Position numbers: made by a program. 64,000 nucleotides of DNA from Longimicrobiales bacterium. Lineage in GTDB: Bacteria > Gemmatimonadota > Gemmatimonadetes > Longimicrobiales > Gaopeijiaceae. Shown one piece after another: positions 39,001 to 45,000 of the stretch (the stretch's first letter is position 1; each line of letters starts with the position of its first letter). The stretch spans positions 1,216,001-1,280,000 of the forward strand of contig CBDFIQ010000001.1 of assembly GCA_965248195.1 (NCBI GenBank), in the 5' to 3' direction.

Positions 39001-42000
39001 CACGTACGTAGGGACCCGAAGAGGATTTCTGGTTCTGACAGTCGTCGGATTGGTGGGCCTTCCGGGCGTTGTTGCCGGCCAGGACATCACCTTCGCCTCG
39101 GACGTCGCTCCGATTCTACAGCAGAACTGTCAGATCTGTCACCGACCGGGGGCGATCGGCCCGATGCCTCTGCTCACGTACGAAGACGCCAGGAGTTATG
39201 GTTTTTTTATCAAGATGAAGGTGGAGAGCCGACTGATGCCGCCCTGGCAGATTGTACGCGGTGTCGGGATCCAGGATTTCAAGAACGACCGCTCGCTGAG
39301 CGACGAAGAGATCAGCACGCTCGTCCAGTGGGTCGATTCGGGCATGCCGGAGGGAAACCCGGCGGATCTTCCAGAGCCTATCGATTGGGCTGCGCGTGAC
39401 GTGCTGGGTTGGCAGCTCGAGGGACAGCTGGGGCGCCCGCCGGATATGATCGTGGCTTCACCGCCGTTCGACGTGGTTCCCAACGGTCAAGACCAGTGGT
39501 CGTTCCCGATAACGAGGCTGGACGATCTGAAGGAGCGGAGGGTGGTCATGGCCGCCGAGATCAGGCCCGGGAATGTCGAGGCACGATACGTTTTTCACCA
39601 CGGCAACAGTCGGTTGGCCGCTTCGGCTGCCGGAAAGGACTACGACGTCTACCCCGAAGATGGCGGGACGACGCTCGAGCCCGGTGAGGAAATCTCATGG
39701 AACCTGCACTTCTTTCCTATCGGGCAGGAAGTCAAAGACGCCTTCATCGAAACCGGCGTGTGGTTCTACCCGAAGGACCAGGAGCCGCAGTTCGAGTCCT
39801 ATTCTACCACGTTCTTGGCTGATCCCATCAACAACCGCAGCGTCATGCCATCGGGTAATCCGTGTTGGAAGCAGCCCGCGGAGGCTGACTTGGACAGCGA
39901 GGCATGTACGCGGCTGACCAGATCCAACAGCCTTCTGATACCGCCCAATGGCCAAGCGATGCTGCAGGGCGTGCACGTGCTCGATCGGCCCATGCGGCTC
40001 CACAGTATTCGGGGGCACATGCACATGCGCGGCAGGCATCATTCGCTGGAAGCGATCTATCCCGATGGTAGGCATGAAATCGTGAACAGGATCAACTTCG
40101 ACCAGAGATGGCATATCGCGCACATCTATGAAGATCACGCGCGGCCGCTCTTCCCGAAGGGGACGGTCCTCATCGTCAACTCGTACTACGACAATACGGC
40201 AGACAACCCGACCAATCCCGATCCCGAGCAGTGGGTTACGTTTGGCAGACGGAGTGCCAGCGAGATGTCACACCTGTGGGTTGGGGTGACCTATTTCGAC
40301 AACGAGGAAGACTTCCAGAAGTTGGTAGAGGAGCGCGAACAGCGCAGACGGACGCCTGCGAACGCAGTAGGAGGAGATGGCTAACCGCTGGGTAGTTGCT
40401 ACGCTTCTGACCATTAGTTGGACTCCCCTCGAGGGGCAGCAGCCCGGCTCCGCCGGTTATGACTTCATGCCGGGGACGTTTCTGCCGTCCGGTCAGCCCA
40501 TTGTACCGATTTTCGAGGGGTGGTATCCGAATCCGGACGGGACCTACGGGCTCTGTTTCGGATACTGGAGCGGCAACACCGAGGAAACGCTGAGCATCCC
40601 ACTGGGATCGGACAACGTCATCGAGCCGAGGCAGTATGACGGCAATCAGCCGACGCTATTCAGGCCAAGACCGAGAACGGGGTGGCGAAGGCATTACTGC
40701 ACCTTTGTGATCGACGTGCCGGCGGACTGGGGGAGCCAGGATGTGATCTGGACGGTCGGGAACCATGGGGAGACGTATGCGGCGGTAGGGCACCTGACGG
40801 TGCCTTCCTATATGCTCGACGAACCAGTGGCCGCGGGGCGTGCGTCCTCCATCCCCGAAGACGAACCGTGGGATTCGAGGGCGGGCTACGGGAGCTGGCA
40901 GGGCGCTGAGGCACCCCTGCTCCAATTCGTCGAGCCGGGCGGGCCGGAAGGGATCGGACGGAGTGGCGTGACTGCCGGACCGGTCACGGTCCGCGTCGGA
41001 CAGCCACTGACGCTGAGGGTCAGGGTGGGCACCCCCGACGGGAGGGACGCCCGCTGGTGGGTTGGATGGTGGGAGCACCAAGGTCCCGGGACCGTGACGA
41101 TCGGCCAGCGAGAGATGGAAGCCGACCCGACGACTGACTATTTGGCGACGACCACGGCAACGTTCAATGAACCGGGCGACTACGTTATCGCTTTGCAGGC
41201 GATCGAGAGCATTCAATCCTTCGAGCGCTTCTGCTGTTGGACCAACGGCTACGTGGAGGTCACCGTTACACGGTAAGGGGTGTAAATCGGTCTCCTCGTG
41301 ACCCCTTGCCTACTCCTGCTCACTTTCGTATCTCGACAAAGCGTGGACGCACGTCGCTAACGCTTTCAGGGAGATTGAGATGAAGCATGCCAATCGGATC
41401 GGGTCGACATTCCTCGCCGTCTTCGCGGCGTTGGTCGTGATGTTGGCCGGGGATCTACACGCCCAAGGAGCCAACAATCCGTATCACGCCGAAGACGCTT
41501 GGGAGAACCTCCCGGAGGGGAGGGTCTTCGGAGCGCTCACTGGGGGCTTCCCTGATCCCGATGGCGAGCACCTGTGGATGTTGAACAGGTGTGGCGCAAA
41601 CATATGCGCGGATAGCGACCTGGACCCGATCCTCAAGTTCGACATGGACGGGAACGTGGTGGACAGCTTCGGCGGAGGCCTATTCGGGTTCCCTCACGGT
41701 TTCTTCCTGGACCACGACGGTTTTCTGTGGGTGACCGAGGGTGCGCCCGACGGAGACAATCGCGCAGAACCTGGCTACAGGCGTGGGTTGGGCCATCAGG
41801 TCCACAAACTCAACCAGCGGGGAGAGGTGGTGATGAGCCTGGGCGAGGCCGGAGTCCACGGGGACGATGAGGACCACTTCAATGGACCCGCTGATGTTCT
41901 GGTCGCTCCGAATGGTGATATCTGGGTCGCGGATGGGCATCGCGGCGGCAACAACCGCATCGTCAAATTCGACAGCGAGGGTCGATTCCTCCTGGCGGTG

Positions 42001-45000
42001 GGTGGTGGTGTCGGTTCAGAGAGCAAGGAAGCGGGCAGGTTTGATGATCCGCATGGTCTCGCGATGGATTCCAGAGGACGGCTCTTCGTCGCCGATCGGG
42101 GTAACAGTCGGATTCAGATCTTCGACCAGACGGGCGATCTCCTCGCGATTTGGACGCAGTTCGGAAAGCCGAGCGGTCTCTTCATCGACGGTGACGACAT
42201 CCTCTATGTGGTCGACGGGTTGTCGGGTCTGGAACGTCCCGCATGGCGGGACAACCCCGGATGGGAGCAGGGTATCCGGATCGGAGACGCTGAAACGGGG
42301 TGGGTGACGGCCTTCATTCCCAACGTTTCTGCGGCGGCCGGTGCCGGCATGGAGTTCCTTGCCGTGGATTTCGAGGGCAACATCTACGTCAACGACCTCT
42401 CCCGAGTGCGTTTGGCGAAGTACACGCAGTTCAGGCCGTAGGCCGCCCGACCGGGCCCGGGTAGCCCTTCTCCCTCACGGTCAGGCTCCACGCGCACGGG
42501 TGGTCCGTTCGCGGCCGGATCAGAGGGCTGGCGCGGATGCTACGCGCCGGCCGCCTCGATGTGTATGTCCTCGAGTGCGGACGCGTCGGCCGCCAGGTCC
42601 GCCTCGCCCGCCGGATAGCCGTTCTCCCTCAGTATGTAGCTGATGATGTCCGCATATTCCTCGGGGCTTAGACTGCCCGGATTACCTTCCGGCATTAACG
42701 TCGACGTCACCTGGAAGAAGTCCCCCACCGTGCGACCCACCCAAACCAACCTGAACCTGGCGCCGGTGAAGTCATTGATCCGGTGGCATGAGGTGCACAC
42801 TTGCTGAAACCTCGCCTGGCCCCGAGAGGCTTGCTGTGCCGTGAATACCCCGTCCAATACCGAGCTGCCAGCAGGTGTAGCGGCCTCCGGCTGTGACGGG
42901 CCGGCAGCAGGGGCAGTAGCCTCCGGCCGCTGGACCGACGCGCACGCCGTCAGGACCAATGCCGAGACCAGCGCGAGCACGACCGAAGCCAATGAATGCC
43001 TCAATTCTCACTGCCCATTTCAGACCTCCTGTATTGCTGGCGGGGATCCATCGTTGGTCGGGTCCTCCCGAGAGCGGCGGCCGTATAGACGAGCAGGCGA
43101 ACCGAACAGGCCGATGGATGCACCTCGAGGCGGTCAAAGTCAACCCATTACAACTGCTGAATCAACCTCGTTGAGTCGATCCACGCTTTCGGAGATGACG
43201 AAACCCACCCTGATATCGCGGCCTGACCTCTTCGCCAGATGAAGCGCCGGCCGATCCCGATCTGGGCGTTCCTGACCTGAAGGAAGTCCTGGTGTTCCTG
43301 ACCTCGTGGGGGTTCCCCCGCTGGAGTCCGAAGACTCGGAACATCGGGTTGACAAACCAGATTACGTCTCGTACTTATCATTGTGAAGTAGTGCCTTTTA
43401 CGGCATGGGAGGTGTCTTTTATCCCATTGGACGTGATCATCCCCGTCCGACACAACTGGTCAATGTCTAGTGTTCGATGTCTAGCATTGTTTGAGGAGTA
43501 GATCGGACCCGAGCAAAGGAGGGTTGGCATGATGAACAAATTGTTTGAAAAGCAGATGCAGATCGCGACCCAAAGAAGGAGGAGCGGCATGATGAACAAA
43601 GTGCGAACGCTTTTCGTCGGTTTGGTCCTCTGGGCGGCTGTCGGTGCCGGCTCCGCGATGGCGCAGGAGGGCACGTTGACGGGCCTGGTGACGTCGGCCG
43701 CGACCGGCGGTCCTTTGGTCAGTGTGCAGGTCTTCATCGAGGGTACGGGGGTGGGCGGGCTCACGCAGGGGAGTGGTCGATTTTTGATCTTGAACGTGTC
43801 GCCGGGCACTTATTCGGTGACGGCGGATCGGATCGGCTACGCATCGGTGACGAGGCAGGTGTCGGTTATGGCCGGCGAGACCGCCGTGCTCGACTACGTG
43901 ATGGAAGAGGAGGCGCTCGCGCTCGACGAGATCATCGTGACGGGCACGGCGGGCGGCACGCAGAGGCGGGCCATCGGAAACCAGGTCGAGCGGCTGGACG
44001 TCGGCTCGGTCCTGGAGGTCAGTCCGGCAGCCAACATAGAGGAAGTGCTTACCGGCAGAATTCCGGGGCTCTACGTTACCCAAAGCGGCGGAAATGTGGG
44101 CTTCAATGGCTCTAAGGTTCGCATTCGGGGAGTGTCGAGCGTCGGCGTTCCTAATGATCCCATCGTCTACGTCGATGGGATCCGGGTCAACAGCGCCGTC
44201 ACCTCCTACGGTAGTCAGCAGGCGACCTCGAGGCTCAACGACATCAATCCCCAGGACATCGAGAGCATCGAGGTGATCAAGGGCCCGGCCGCGGCCACGC
44301 TGTACGGGACCGAAGCCTCGAACGGGGTGATCCAGATCATCACCAAGCGCGGGGTGTCGGGCGCGCCGTCCTACACGGGACGCCTCGAGTACGGGGCCAA
44401 CTGGTTCAACTCGCCTCGATCAACGATCGGGGACCGTTGGGACCGCGATCCAAATACCGGGGAGGTCATTGGCCCGCTTAGTCTCTATCAAATAGAAAGC
44501 GACCGTTTGGGTAGGGAGCTCTTCCAGAACGGGCCCATCGCGAAGGCCAGCCTCGCGGTCCGAGGCGGAACGGATTTTATTCGGTATTACGGGTCCTTCG
44601 ACCGATCCTACGAGGAAGGGTTCGTCGCTTGGAACCACGACACGCAGATGAGCGGGAGATTGAACGTTTCAGTCACTGCGAGCCCGTCGATTGAGTTCAC
44701 GTTCAACGGGTCGTTCAACAAGGGGAACACCCGGAGTGCCGGAGGTAATATCTGGGGGACCTTCATGAGACAGCAGCTCTCGACCGTAGGCGAGGACCCG
44801 GCGAGTTGTGAGCCAAAATGCCAGCGCGGATTCCAGATTCCGCCCGAAATATACGAGGAGTTCCAGTTTGAAACGTTCGAGCTTGAGCGCAACACGTGGA
44901 ACATAGAACTGAAGGTCAATCCACAGGGTTTGCCTTGGCTCCAGAATCGGTTGATCCTAGGAAGGGACAGAGCAACAGAGGACGAGATAGACCTCACCCG

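Follow-up and report, generated by a model that had tools for sequence, protein, structure and literature searches.

The question raised by this locus is whether gene g01182, which encodes a six-bladed NHL propeller resembling the peptidyl-hydroxyglycine amidating lyase (PAL) of animals, specifies an enzyme, and what that enzyme might do in a bacterium. The window analyzed here is a stretch of 64,000 nucleotides from a Longimicrobiales genome (Table 1). We confirmed g01182 as a real gene by its ORF, its ribosome-binding site and its database relatives, of which more than 6407 were found at E <= 1e-10 among 8000 candidates scored. Its product matches Pfam NHL with 70.3 bits (cut-off 20), and the sequence signals at its hydrophobic N-terminus mark it as a bacterial relative of the animal peptide-amidating lyase that is putatively secreted. 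Parts of the upstream genes A and B, the gap between B and g01182, and the 3' part of g01182 are spanned by short RNA-library contigs (95-99% alike); these are weak support for the gene because such libraries can contain DNA.

When g01182 was compared by phmmer with every ORF of 100 aa or longer on the two contigs of the genome, 46 NHL-propeller ORFs were identified at E <= 1e-3, which agrees with the family of about 40 genes described in an initial annotation of this DNA. By longest-ORF calling 33 of them measure 300-420 aa (37 such copies had been reported), and a hydrophobic N-terminal run, previously described as a signal-like N-terminus in 34 of 37 sequences, is present in 33 of the 40 ORFs (290-470 aa) that were aligned. 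The family itself was known already: relatives are labeled as PAL family at NCBI, and two sources, one on ExiPAL and one a patent, describe bacterial PAL homologues with PAL activity.

Comparison with the rat PAL core (3FVZ) gave a match at E 8.7e-21 for the single g01182 sequence, whose residues 81-249 correspond to chain positions 68-224 in one collinear stretch. A profile of 21 paralogs recovered the collinear match reported before (profile 66-354 to chain 24-320, E 3.3e-51) at rank 6; the five chains ranked above it were Thin/TRIM71, whose matches were broken into 4-5 repeated pieces of blades. With N-terminal profiles 3FVZ ranked first (E 1.1e-20 and 4e-36), and positions 35-86 of a C-terminal profile matched chain 272-320. 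The residue-by-residue alignment that the initial annotation lacked is now printed for the first three blades. These comparisons support the assignment of the family to the PAL superfamily and not to the generic NHL scaffolds.

Table 1. Features of the window; positions are counted from its first nucleotide
Feature	Position	Strand	Basis
Second A (7911-9401) and B (6738-7745) pair	6738..9401	-	Paralog search
Second PAL-like gene adjoining an A-B pair, canonical Tyr/His site type, 102 nt from A	9503..10585	-	Paralog alignment; neighborhood
TonB-dependent receptor with CarboxypepD_reg domain, first of the same-strand row	30373..33426	+	Pfam
441-aa protein next to the receptor, without Pfam family	33511..34836	+	Putative receptor partner, by position only
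PQQ-dependent dehydrogenase with N-terminal cytochrome c domain	34833..37064	+	Pfam PQQ 3.8e-68, Cytochrome_CBB3 3.5e-10
FAD-dependent oxidoreductase (FAD_binding_2)	37203..38861	+	Pfam 5.5e-44
Family A, cytochrome c domain fused to a PHM/DBH-fold two-domain body	38981..40384	+	Paralog columns, AF2, Foldseek
Family B, secreted tandem Ig-like protein, predicted partner of A	40377..41276	+	AF2, fold matches, predicted complex
Ribosome-binding site GGGAGA, 5 nt upstream of the g01182 ATG	41369..41374	+	Seen in the sequence itself
g01182, PAL-like six-bladed NHL propeller, His/Glu site type	41380..42441	+	353-aa ORF; Pfam NHL; 3FVZ profile match
Signal-peptide-like N-terminus, residues 1-28, ending in L-H-A	41380..41463	+	Translation; putative cleavage site
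R70 codon, PAL Arg533 (3FVZ chain 42)	41587..41589	+	Printed alignments; R in 36 of 40 paralogs
H106 codon (P-H-G), PAL zinc ligand His585 (chain 94)	41695..41697	+	Printed alignments
H187 codon (D-G-H), position of PAL catalytic Tyr654 (chain 163, D-G-Y)	41938..41940	+	Printed alignment
H225 codon (P-H), probable position of PAL zinc ligand His690 (chain 199)	42052..42054	+	Collinear range
R240 codon (A-D-R), probable position of PAL catalytic Arg706 (chain 215; ExiPAL R225)	42097..42099	+	Collinear range, PAL motif; R in 38 of 40
E325 codon, probable position of PAL zinc ligand His786 (chain 295)	42352..42354	+	C-terminal profile; PAL M-P-H-D printed
Small mono-haem cytochrome c, convergent, 98 nt past g01182	42540..43004	-	Pfam Cytochrome_CBB3 5.4e-07
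Nearest paralog of g01182 (61% identity), after a TonB receptor and a 467-aa protein	48351..49445	+	phmmer
PAL-like paralog immediately before a PQQ dehydrogenase (56347-58404)	55265..56332	+	phmmer; neighborhood
A-B-A group: A 59502-60845, B 61177-62163, A 62316-63659	59502..63659	-	Paralog search

The conserved residues of the family fall on the PAL site. The pairing of H225, R240 and column 325 with His690, Arg706 and His786 is supported by collinear ranges and printed PAL motifs: the first register would need a one-residue indel (the P-H...A-D-R stretch of PAL is printed) and the last, set by a G-x-x-Y motif, would be gapless. H106 and H225, reported as near-invariant (36 of 37 each), are each kept in 39 of 40 paralogs, as is D239. 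The arginines singled out earlier, R193 and R244, are indeed present in 40 of 40, but they are generic NHL-blade arginines found also in the non-enzymatic blades of Thin/TRIM71, and the diagnostic ones are R70 and R240. Positions 70, 106, 225 and 240 read Arg-His-His-Arg in 34 of the 40 paralogs and in all of the 120 closest database relatives; the same set recurs in 32 of 35 ORFs from metagenomes and in 99 of 100 from other species.

The previously noted divisions at the two remaining positions were counted as Tyr 21/His 15 in column 187 and His 24/Glu 15 in column 325; like the other counts on the 40, these lie near those given earlier for 37 sequences. The two columns, listed separately in the initial annotation, are not independent and define two exclusive site types: 36 of the 40 paralogs carry either Tyr with His (21) or His with Glu (15), and the combinations Tyr with Glu and His with His are absent from the 40. 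This strict covariation, which counts sequences and not evolutionary events, is a new observation. The closest database relatives all carry His with Glu (120/120), and the ORFs of other species divide into 82 with His and Glu and 15 with Tyr and His out of 100. Members of the His/Glu type form one clade (SH-aLRT 97, quick tree), and the double change may have been one single event. As g01182 belongs to this derived, non-canonical clade, it lacks the catalytic Tyr and the third His of PAL, a zinc ligand, and PAL chemistry is therefore possibly not kept.

In the active prokaryotic enzyme ExiPAL its authors name H95, H210 and H309 as zinc ligands and Y178 and R225 as catalytic residues. By that account the site spacings of the paralog family are the same, and the second His of g01182 precedes R240 by 15 residues, as H210 does R225; g01182 differs in having F326 in place of the structural-calcium Asp D310, a column mostly occupied by Gly in the paralogs. 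Whereas animal PAL uses three His and a Tyr, g01182 keeps H106, H225, R70 and R240 with His187 and Glu325 instead. To judge from the alignments, the three His and catalytic Tyr of PAL are rewired in this site, two metal-site residues having exchanged their roles.

g01182 closes a same-strand row formed by the receptor, the 441-aa protein, the PQQ dehydrogenase, the FAD oxidoreductase, A and B. The gaps in this row measure between -8 and 138 nt, and A is not separated from g01182 by any terminator-like site. Protein A keeps C50-x-x-C53-H54 (cytochrome c), H206 H207, H243, H346-x-H348 and M429, and across 21 paralogs its HH, H, HxH and M do not vary and follow the order of PHM; in PDB titles, CuH residues H107, H108 and H172 are mentioned along with an M314 mutant. 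When the AF2 model of A (pLDDT 79) was compared with the PDB by Foldseek, the first 31 matches were all DBH or PHM (DBH 4ZEL, E 1e-11; PHM, E 7e-10 to 1e-7, TM to target about 0.58). The model of B (pLDDT 84) had intimin/titin Ig tandems as its best folds, and a predicted complex of A with B scored 0.85 (best control 0.00), so that B is predicted to bind A.

Is the association with A and B general? Three PAL-like copies had been placed directly beside A or B, and no more than 200 nt separates 3 of the 46 PAL-like ORFs from such a gene; likewise, 7 of 40 had been described as near and 7 of 46 lie within 5 kb. However, neither A nor B lies beside the closest relatives of g01182 (L070-L075, 82-89% identity), whose loci include 1.2-8 kb of sequence upstream, and the linkage is confined to this genus (7/46 here, 1/79 loci elsewhere). 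The description of A as PHM/DBH-like holds by predicted fold, but not the general link to PAL-like genes. All told, that annotation was right about the PAL superfamily and site, and needed correction on the arginines, the independence of the site columns, the novelty of the family and this link.

What recurs beside PAL-like genes in different phyla is a PQQ dehydrogenase with cytochrome c. This genome has 50 PQQ dehydrogenase ORFs, and 8 of the 46 PAL-like ORFs have one of them within 1.5 kb (random-gene mean 1.7; 8 reached in 0 of 500 draws), a permutation result inflated because all these families cluster in genomic islands, and 14 of 46 lie within 5 kb (mean 4.0). In other species the dehydrogenase was present in 22 of 79 loci and absent within 8 kb in the other 57, a small cytochrome c was present in 8 of 79, and 12 of 25 PQQ ORFs lay within 1 kb of a PAL-like ORF. 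Each of the five closest metagenome relatives (L070-L074, 88-89% identity) has a PQQ dehydrogenase in its locus. Neighborhoods of near relatives differ among themselves, with amidases and peptidases at L095, an esterase at L085 and a multihaem cytochrome at L075.

We give about an even chance to the reading that g01182 acts in the periplasm on oxidised intermediates, as a metal-dependent lyase or hydrolase. Homology to PAL, the conserved and covarying site residues, export signals and gene neighborhoods are observed; the metal, chemistry, substrate class and order of steps we infer as follows. g01182 would be a mononuclear-metal enzyme working within periplasmic oxidative catabolic gene clusters, which comprise its most conserved neighbors, a PQQ-dependent dehydrogenase and a c-type cytochrome, and, in this genus, also A, as a cytochrome-c-fused PHM-like copper monooxygenase, and B. 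By analogy with PAL, R70 and R240 would bind a carboxylate-bearing oxidised intermediate, X-CH(OH)-COO- (a carbinolamide or hemiacetal), whose X-C bond would be cut at the metal, setting free a small 2-oxo acid such as glyoxylate. The tendency of PAL-like genes to lie near periplasmic oxidising enzymes is a clue to what such bacterial lyases do in nature.

A rival reading, possible but unlikely, is a split bacterial PAM, in which A (with B) would be a haem-c-driven copper monooxygenase hydroxylating the carbon next to the nitrogen of a glycine-ended or similar substrate and the lyase would cleave the carbinolamide. The Foldseek matches and invariant copper-type residues of A suit it, as do the shared strand, the 8-nt A-B overlap and the 103-nt gap before g01182. 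Seven PAL-like ORFs within 5 kb of A exceed the random mean of 2.2 (7 reached in 2 of 500 draws), yet some proximity is to be expected where 26 A and 46 PAL-like genes crowd into islands. In one Tyr/His clade 4 of 6 members have A/B within 3 kb, compared with 3 of the 40 others; two sister species show same-strand B-A-PAL, PAL-PAL-A-B and B-A-PQQ-PAL rows; and the best BLAST match (93% identical) of the second A-linked copy in the window again adjoins A/B after rearrangement, although genomes of such close kin do not count as independent. Among 60 genomes sampled from the order, including an unpublished PAL-only one (G042), 16 of the 17 with A also hold PAL-like genes, but 11 of 27 with PAL-like genes lack A. 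A or B occurs in only 4 of 80 metagenome loci besides the single locus in other species, the closest relatives of g01182 have neither, and g01182 itself lacks the catalytic Tyr.

The PQQ dehydrogenase, the commonest neighbor, would also suit a lactonase or other hydrolase acting on its lactone or ester-like product, like the propeller lactonases that serve sugar dehydrogenases. Some relatives are labeled 'sugar lactone lactonase YvrE' or SMP-30/gluconolactonase-like, but the Pfam SGL match of 22.3 bits is below the cut-off of 26.3, and diisopropyl-fluorophosphatase, like other phosphotriesterase/lactonase propellers, is matched distantly (E about 1e-5) whereas PAL is matched across six blades at E 3e-51. 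Propeller lactonases have carboxylate/Asn calcium sites and the residues conserved here are the His/Arg set of PAL; we regard this reading as rather improbable. It is very unlikely that g01182 is a non-catalytic scaffold for binding or assembly in the periplasm: NHL repeats often serve as binding modules, a representative search gave NHL-type matches in 184811 proteins, and TRIM71/Thin had the top PDB scores by sum, but as repeated, non-collinear single blades, while the non-repeat R70, H106, H225 and R240 are kept across phyla, the fifth and sixth residues covary, and PAL activity has been measured in homologues. Prokaryotic homologues active on peptidyl-hydroxyglycine, together with the PAL homology, might suggest that g01182 amidates the C-terminus of a bacterial peptide or RiPP that is secreted, in the way PAM treats hormones. 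Genes for RiPPs or precursor peptides did not come to notice in the window, although no search aimed at them was made. This reading seems hardly credible for about 40 paralogs placed among TonB receptors, PQQ dehydrogenases, amidohydrolases and phosphatases, a setting resembling uptake and degradation.

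The subject gene, g01182, encodes a protein of 353 aa that resembles peptidyl-hydroxyglycine amidating lyase (PAL), and its ATG is preceded by a ribosome-binding site (GGGAGA) five bases upstream. The protein starts with a hydrophobic signal-like stretch ending in L-H-A, and it is predicted to be secreted. Pfam identified only NHL repeats in it (PF01436, 70.3 bits against a gathering cut-off of 20), and SGL (SMP-30/gluconolactonase/LRE-like, PF08450) remained below its gathering cut-off (22.3 vs 26.3 bits). NCBIfam gave no match above cut-off for the PAL-like protein, for its upstream neighbours A and B, or for a 467-aa protein. 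ORFs of at least 100 aa in the two contigs of the genome (4.86 Mb) were searched with phmmer, which at E <= 1e-3 yielded 46 relatives of the PAL-like protein, 29 of A (467 aa) and 21 of B (299 aa). Among the PAL-like ORFs, 40 with lengths of 290-470 aa were aligned and six longer ones were omitted. Three PAL-like ORFs of 614-718 aa, obtained by longest-ORF calling and outside this alignment, may be fusions with other domains. The relatives of the query that carry source names belong to metagenome-assembled genomes of Gemmatimonadota, Acidobacteria and Gammaproteobacteria.

Location of the features discussed (window positions unless a contig or locus is named)
Feature	Position	Strand	Remark
PAL-like gene g01182 (query)	41380-42441	+	353 aa
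A, cytochrome c and predicted PHM/DBH fold	38981-40384		upstream of query
B, Ig-like	40377-41276		upstream of query
PQQ-dependent dehydrogenase type	24886-27063		
PQQ-dependent dehydrogenase type	28018-29964		
PQQ-dependent dehydrogenase type	34833-37064		
PQQ-dependent dehydrogenase type	56347-58404		
A copy	59502-60845		447 aa
A copy	62316-63659		447 aa
TonB-dependent receptor (CarboxypepD_reg) and following protein	19329-24222		
TonB-dependent receptor (CarboxypepD_reg) and following protein	30373-34836		
TonB-dependent receptor (CarboxypepD_reg) and following protein	43529-48078		
Multihaem cytochrome	3809-5749	-	about 650 aa
Multihaem cytochrome	L075:2714-4672		about 650 aa; metagenome locus
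Weak NHL protein and DUF5916 protein	50888-55173		501 aa and 927 aa
Aconitase-family genes	125-3770		consecutive
Long PAL-like ORF	C1:415329-417485		
Long PAL-like ORF	C1:306181-308295		
Long PAL-like ORF	C2:3150116-3151960		

The initial annotation had reported a set of nearly invariant residues in this family, and its counts were reproduced on the 40 aligned paralogs. In query numbering, H106, H225 and D239 are each kept in 39 sequences, R240 in 38, R70 in 36, and R193 and R244 in all 40. Column 187 holds Tyr in 21 and His in 15 paralogs, column 325 holds His in 24, Glu in 15 and Asn in one, and column 326, which is Phe in the query, is occupied by Gly (17), Ser (6), Phe (3) and others. A hydrophobic N-terminal run was found in 33 of the 40.

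Sequence comparison with the rat PAL core (PDB 3FVZ) indicated homology along the whole propeller. The query alone matched 3FVZ at E 8.7e-21 (residues 81-249 to chain 68-224), and a profile of 21 paralogs matched it in one collinear stretch (66-354 to 24-320, E 3.3e-51), ranking sixth among PDB sequences. The NHL proteins Thin and TRIM71 outscored 3FVZ with the full profile, but only as four to five separate blade matches. With profiles restricted to the first two or three blades 3FVZ ranked first (E 1.1e-20 and 4e-36, respectively), and these searches supplied the printed residue alignment to PAL that the initial annotation lacked. In the C-terminal part, the query alone found no PAL match in the PDB and the corresponding paralog profile ranked 3FVZ about 46th. 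By its sequence, the query is a six-bladed propeller collinear with the PAL core.

The printed alignment places R70 on chain R42, H106 on chain H94 (P-H-G in both), column 187 (D-G-H or D-G-Y) on chain Y163 (D-G-Y) and R193 on chain R167. Since the full-length rat chain 5WM0 matched at an offset of +491, these chain residues correspond to Arg533, His585, Tyr654 and Arg658. The PAL stretches around chain H199...A-D-R215 and M-P-H295-D296 were printed in other alignments. From the collinear ranges, H225 would fall on His690 (with a one-residue indel), R240 on Arg706 and column 325 on His786; H225 belongs to a P-H motif and precedes A-D-R by 15 residues, against 16 in PAL. In rat PAL, His585, His690 and His786 bind zinc and Tyr654 and Arg706 are catalytic, roles that Chufan and colleagues reportedly described in 2009 together with that of Arg533. 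On this correspondence the query appears to possess the first and second zinc His (H106 and H225), the catalytic Arg (R240) and the blade-1 Arg (R70). Three features of the PAL core are absent from it: the third zinc His (rat His786, H309 in the PAL of Exiguobacterium, ExiPAL) is Glu325, the catalytic Tyr (rat Tyr654, ExiPAL Y178) is His187, and the calcium-binding Asp (rat Asp787, ExiPAL D310) is F326. Both proteins are secreted, the query by prediction. Unlike the PAL half of animal PAM (EC 4.3.2.5; rat PAL core structures 3FVZ/3FW0), which splits peptidyl-alpha-hydroxyglycine into an amide and glyoxylate, the query is bacterial, is not fused to PHM and belongs to a family multiplied about 40-fold.

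ExiPAL, a prokaryotic PAL with measured activity, resembles the query in being a stand-alone bacterial PAL homologue. The passages on its site in the ExiPAL article (JACS Au 2024, PMC10900485) list zinc ligands H95, H210 and H309, catalytic Y178 and R225, and calcium at V43, I97 and D310. Compared by these published residue numbers, the spacings agree (95/178/210/225/309 in ExiPAL vs 106/187/225/240/325 in the query). The ExiPAL set of one Tyr and three His is present in 21 of the 40 paralogs, whereas the clade of the query has His187 and Glu325, and the calcium Asp that ExiPAL keeps is not conserved in the PAL-like family of this genome. Prokaryotic PAL homologues serve as amidation biocatalysts. 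The same article calls their natural functions and evolutionary paths unclear and states that PAL activity was established by experiment for several bacterial proteins (US patent 9,096,843). Our literature searches found no description of a natural role of bacterial PALs, of a His/Glu clade or of the gene neighbourhoods; the main text of a 2019 PAM review contains neither "bacteria" nor "prokaryot", and two further papers name PAL solely by way of analogy.

Propellers of other kinds were weighed as alternatives to PAL. NHL scaffolds (TRIM71, Thin, Brat, the PknD sensor and the designed Pizza proteins) share the blade motif with the query, including R193, R244 and D-R-x-N-x-R-I-Q-x-F, yet they match it blade by blade and out of register and lack a counterpart of R70; the set of His and Arg site residues is characteristic of the PAL-like family. 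This bears on the arginines stressed in the initial annotation: the invariance of R193 and R244 holds, but both also occur in Thin and TRIM71 blades and are generic NHL-blade residues rather than marks of the site, the informative ones being R70 and R240. A paralog-profile search of protein representatives returned giant multi-NHL proteins as its best 150 matches (770-7687 aa, with 8-40 stretches each). The propeller lactonases and lyases (SGL, DFPase, Vgb) are metal-dependent enzymes whose names some sources use for relatives of the query; with paralog profiles against the PDB, DFPase reached no better than E of about 1e-5 and Vgb no better than E 0.002-0.05, for which reason an identity as virginiamycin B lyase (Vgb) was rejected. 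ScyF (NCBIfam NF035926) was likewise rejected at 76.5 bits against a curated cut-off of 350. Atlas clusters of the relatives are labelled "putative Peptidylamidoglycolate lyase" and SMP-30-like. The query is a candidate enzyme of the PAL superfamily with a non-canonical site type, and not a new family.

The two variable site columns, 187 and 325, are not independent. Among the 40 paralogs the canonical Tyr+His combination occurs 21 times and His+Glu 15 times, four sequences are odd, and neither Tyr+Glu nor His+His was found. The best 120 database relatives of the query are all His+Glu; 35 metagenome ORFs comprise 31 His+Glu and four Tyr+His, with no other type, and 100 ORFs from 79 loci of other species comprise 82 His+Glu, 15 Tyr+His and three others. 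A quick maximum-likelihood tree grouped the 15 His/Glu rows in a single clade (SH-aLRT 97) that sits among Tyr/His paralogs, and the double change may therefore represent a single event that has been kept since. Each type would offer three nitrogen donors and one oxygen donor, with the oxygen donor shifted from position 187 to position 325. Being of the His/Glu type, the query is therefore without two defining features of PAL that 21 of its paralogs have. The His/Glu type forms a large phylum-spanning clade with a rewired site, with His for the catalytic Tyr and Glu for the third His, in which the metal or the chemistry should differ.

As to gene neighbourhood, the most recurrent partners of PAL-like genes are PQQ dehydrogenases. 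For eight of the 46 PAL-like ORFs, one of the 50 PQQ dehydrogenase ORFs of the genome is no more than 1.5 kb away (random mean 1.7; eight reached in 0 of 500 draws), and for 14 no more than 5 kb (mean 4.0). The query is preceded on its own strand by a PQQ dehydrogenase that contains a cytochrome c domain, and followed after 98 nt by a small cytochrome c. Every locus of the five closest metagenome relatives (L070-L074) contains a PQQ dehydrogenase; in L071, the only annotated one, the dehydrogenase gene is divergently oriented and forms a pair with a cytochrome c. In 79 loci from Acidobacteriota, Gemmatimonadota, Gamma- and Alphaproteobacteria, Marinimicrobia, Phycisphaerae and others, 22 contain a PQQ dehydrogenase and eight a small cytochrome c, and 12 of 25 PQQ ORFs have a PAL-like ORF no more than 1 kb away, against roughly one in six for an even spread. 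Amidases, peptidases and esterases occur in the neighbourhoods of other relatives. This recurrent partnership of PAL-like genes with periplasmic PQQ dehydrogenases and cytochromes c is a second lead of the analysis beside the rewired clade; a third is that one Gemmatimonadota genus co-locates PAL-like genes with the family of A.

A, encoded two genes upstream of the query, has invariant C50-x-x-C53-H54, and Pfam Cytochrome_CBB3 matched 18 of its 21 paralogs. H206 H207, H243, H346-x-H348 and M429 are also invariant in the 21, in the order and domains of PHM. The AF2 model of A (pLDDT 79) gave only DBH or PHM as its first 31 Foldseek matches in the PDB, with E 1e-11 against human DBH and a TM to target of about 0.58 against rat PHM, so that A is predicted to have the two-domain PHM/DBH fold; its putative CuH (His-His...His) and CuM (His-x-His...Met) ligands were assigned from residue order and domain. 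By sequence, the A profile found neither PHM nor DBH in the PDB, just weak pieces of cytochrome c, and none of the 21 paralogs exceeded the Pfam cut-offs for Cu2_monooxygen or Cu2_monoox_C (one reached Cu2_monoox_C at E 0.045). Cu2_monoox_C is carried by 13% of the members in some related Atlas clusters. There are at least 3035 relatives of A, and the 120 listed carry source names of the "cytochrome c" types or "hypothetical protein". With the fold given by the model and nothing by sequence or name, A would thus be a haem-c-fused PHM/DBH-fold protein missed by public annotation, and our literature search found no description of a cytochrome-c-fused PHM-like protein. A has in common with PHM and DBH the predicted fold and the order of its putative HH, H, HxH, M ligands; it differs in having a haem c domain (CxxCH) at its N-terminus where those enzymes depend on a soluble reductant, and in its predicted Ig-like partner.

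This partner, B, is modelled (pLDDT 84) as a secreted tandem of Ig-like domains with intimin and titin folds. The start of its gene shares 8 nt with the end of A, B and A genes adjoin in nearly all cases, and the genome holds 20 further A-B pairs. The predicted A-B complex scored 0.85 and the best of three controls 0.00; of 157 solved complexes 116 attain that mark, as do 2 of 215 mismatched pairs, counts that hold roughly, as own alignments were used. Contact agreement among runs was at least 54% and partner pLDDT at least 80. The interface involves residues 413-426 of A, a conserved loop directly before M429, through which A is predicted to bind B. Two window copies of A are near-identical with one B gene between them, which points to a recent tandem duplication.

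Linkage of the PAL-like genes to A and B was seen within the genus. Seven of the 46 PAL-like ORFs are within 5 kb of A (random-gene mean 2.2; seven reached in 2 of 500 draws) and three are within 200 nt of A/B. In one Tyr/His clade four of six members lie within 3 kb of A/B, vs three among the other 40, and the gene rows B-A-PAL, PAL-PAL-A-B and B-A-PQQ-PAL were found in two sister species. Among 60 genomes of the order, 16 of the 17 with A have PAL-like genes and 11 of the 27 with PAL-like genes have no A, with the unpublished genome G042 as a PAL-only case. The six closest metagenome relatives of the query (82-89% identity) show no A or B in the 1.2-8 kb upstream, and A/B occurs in four of 80 metagenome loci and in one of 79 loci of other species. 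Within this genus the link is firm enough to be worth testing; it does not characterise the PAL-like family as such. For the stretch itself, metatranscriptome-labelled short contigs, 95-99% alike, cover parts of A, of B, of the B-PAL gap (41207-41371) and of the 3' part of the PAL-like gene; such libraries can hold DNA and contigs cannot prove a transcript, so they lend weak support to expression, and the parts without such cover, e.g. 41441-41924, are uninformative. No Rfam match was found within window 30000-44000, and a promoter/terminator scan gave a count not above that in shuffled sequences.

Two readings of these neighbourhoods may be compared. The most likely role of the query is a metal-dependent cleavage in the periplasm, as one step of an oxidative catabolism in which PQQ dehydrogenases also act. 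A bolder reading, which we regard as improbable, is an ascorbate-independent periplasmic split PAM; it would explain what prokaryotic PALs do in nature and represent a bacterial forerunner of animal PAM. In such a system a PQQ dehydrogenase and c-type cytochromes would pass electrons to the haem c domain of A, whose PHM-like copper site would be shaped by B, predicted to be bound beside the CuM methionine loop; A would hydroxylate a carbon adjoining N or O in imported organic matter, and one of the roughly 40 PAL-like lyases would cleave the hydroxylated bond and release glyoxylate, each of these lyases, whether of the Tyr/His or the His/Glu type, being tuned to a substrate class. If the monooxygenase-lyase pairing were true, it would bear on the origin of the animal peptide-amidating enzyme and provide a new ascorbate-free drive for a PHM-type copper site. 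The A/B pair is a more novel object than the query and makes a bacterial monooxygenase-lyase pair testable. Within 4.9 Mb the genome has 46 PAL-like ORFs, 26-29 of A, 21 of B and 50 of PQQ dehydrogenases, a multiplication which suggests that marine organic matter is degraded with a broad oxidative toolkit in the periplasm.

Other features of the window were also recorded. Each of its three TonB-dependent receptors is followed by a protein of 441-509 aa without a Pfam family, and these pairs stand at the head of rows of periplasmic enzyme genes, a layout resembling polysaccharide-utilisation loci. The multihaem cytochrome, with c554/c7/c552-like pieces, has a counterpart in metagenome locus L075 beside an 82%-identical PAL-like relative. 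The weak NHL protein overlaps the DUF5916 protein by 4 nt, and in locus L085 a DUF5916/CBM9 protein precedes a 73%-identical PAL-like gene. At the left end of the window one aconitase-family large subunit gene lies together with three separate aconitase C-terminal (small subunit) genes.
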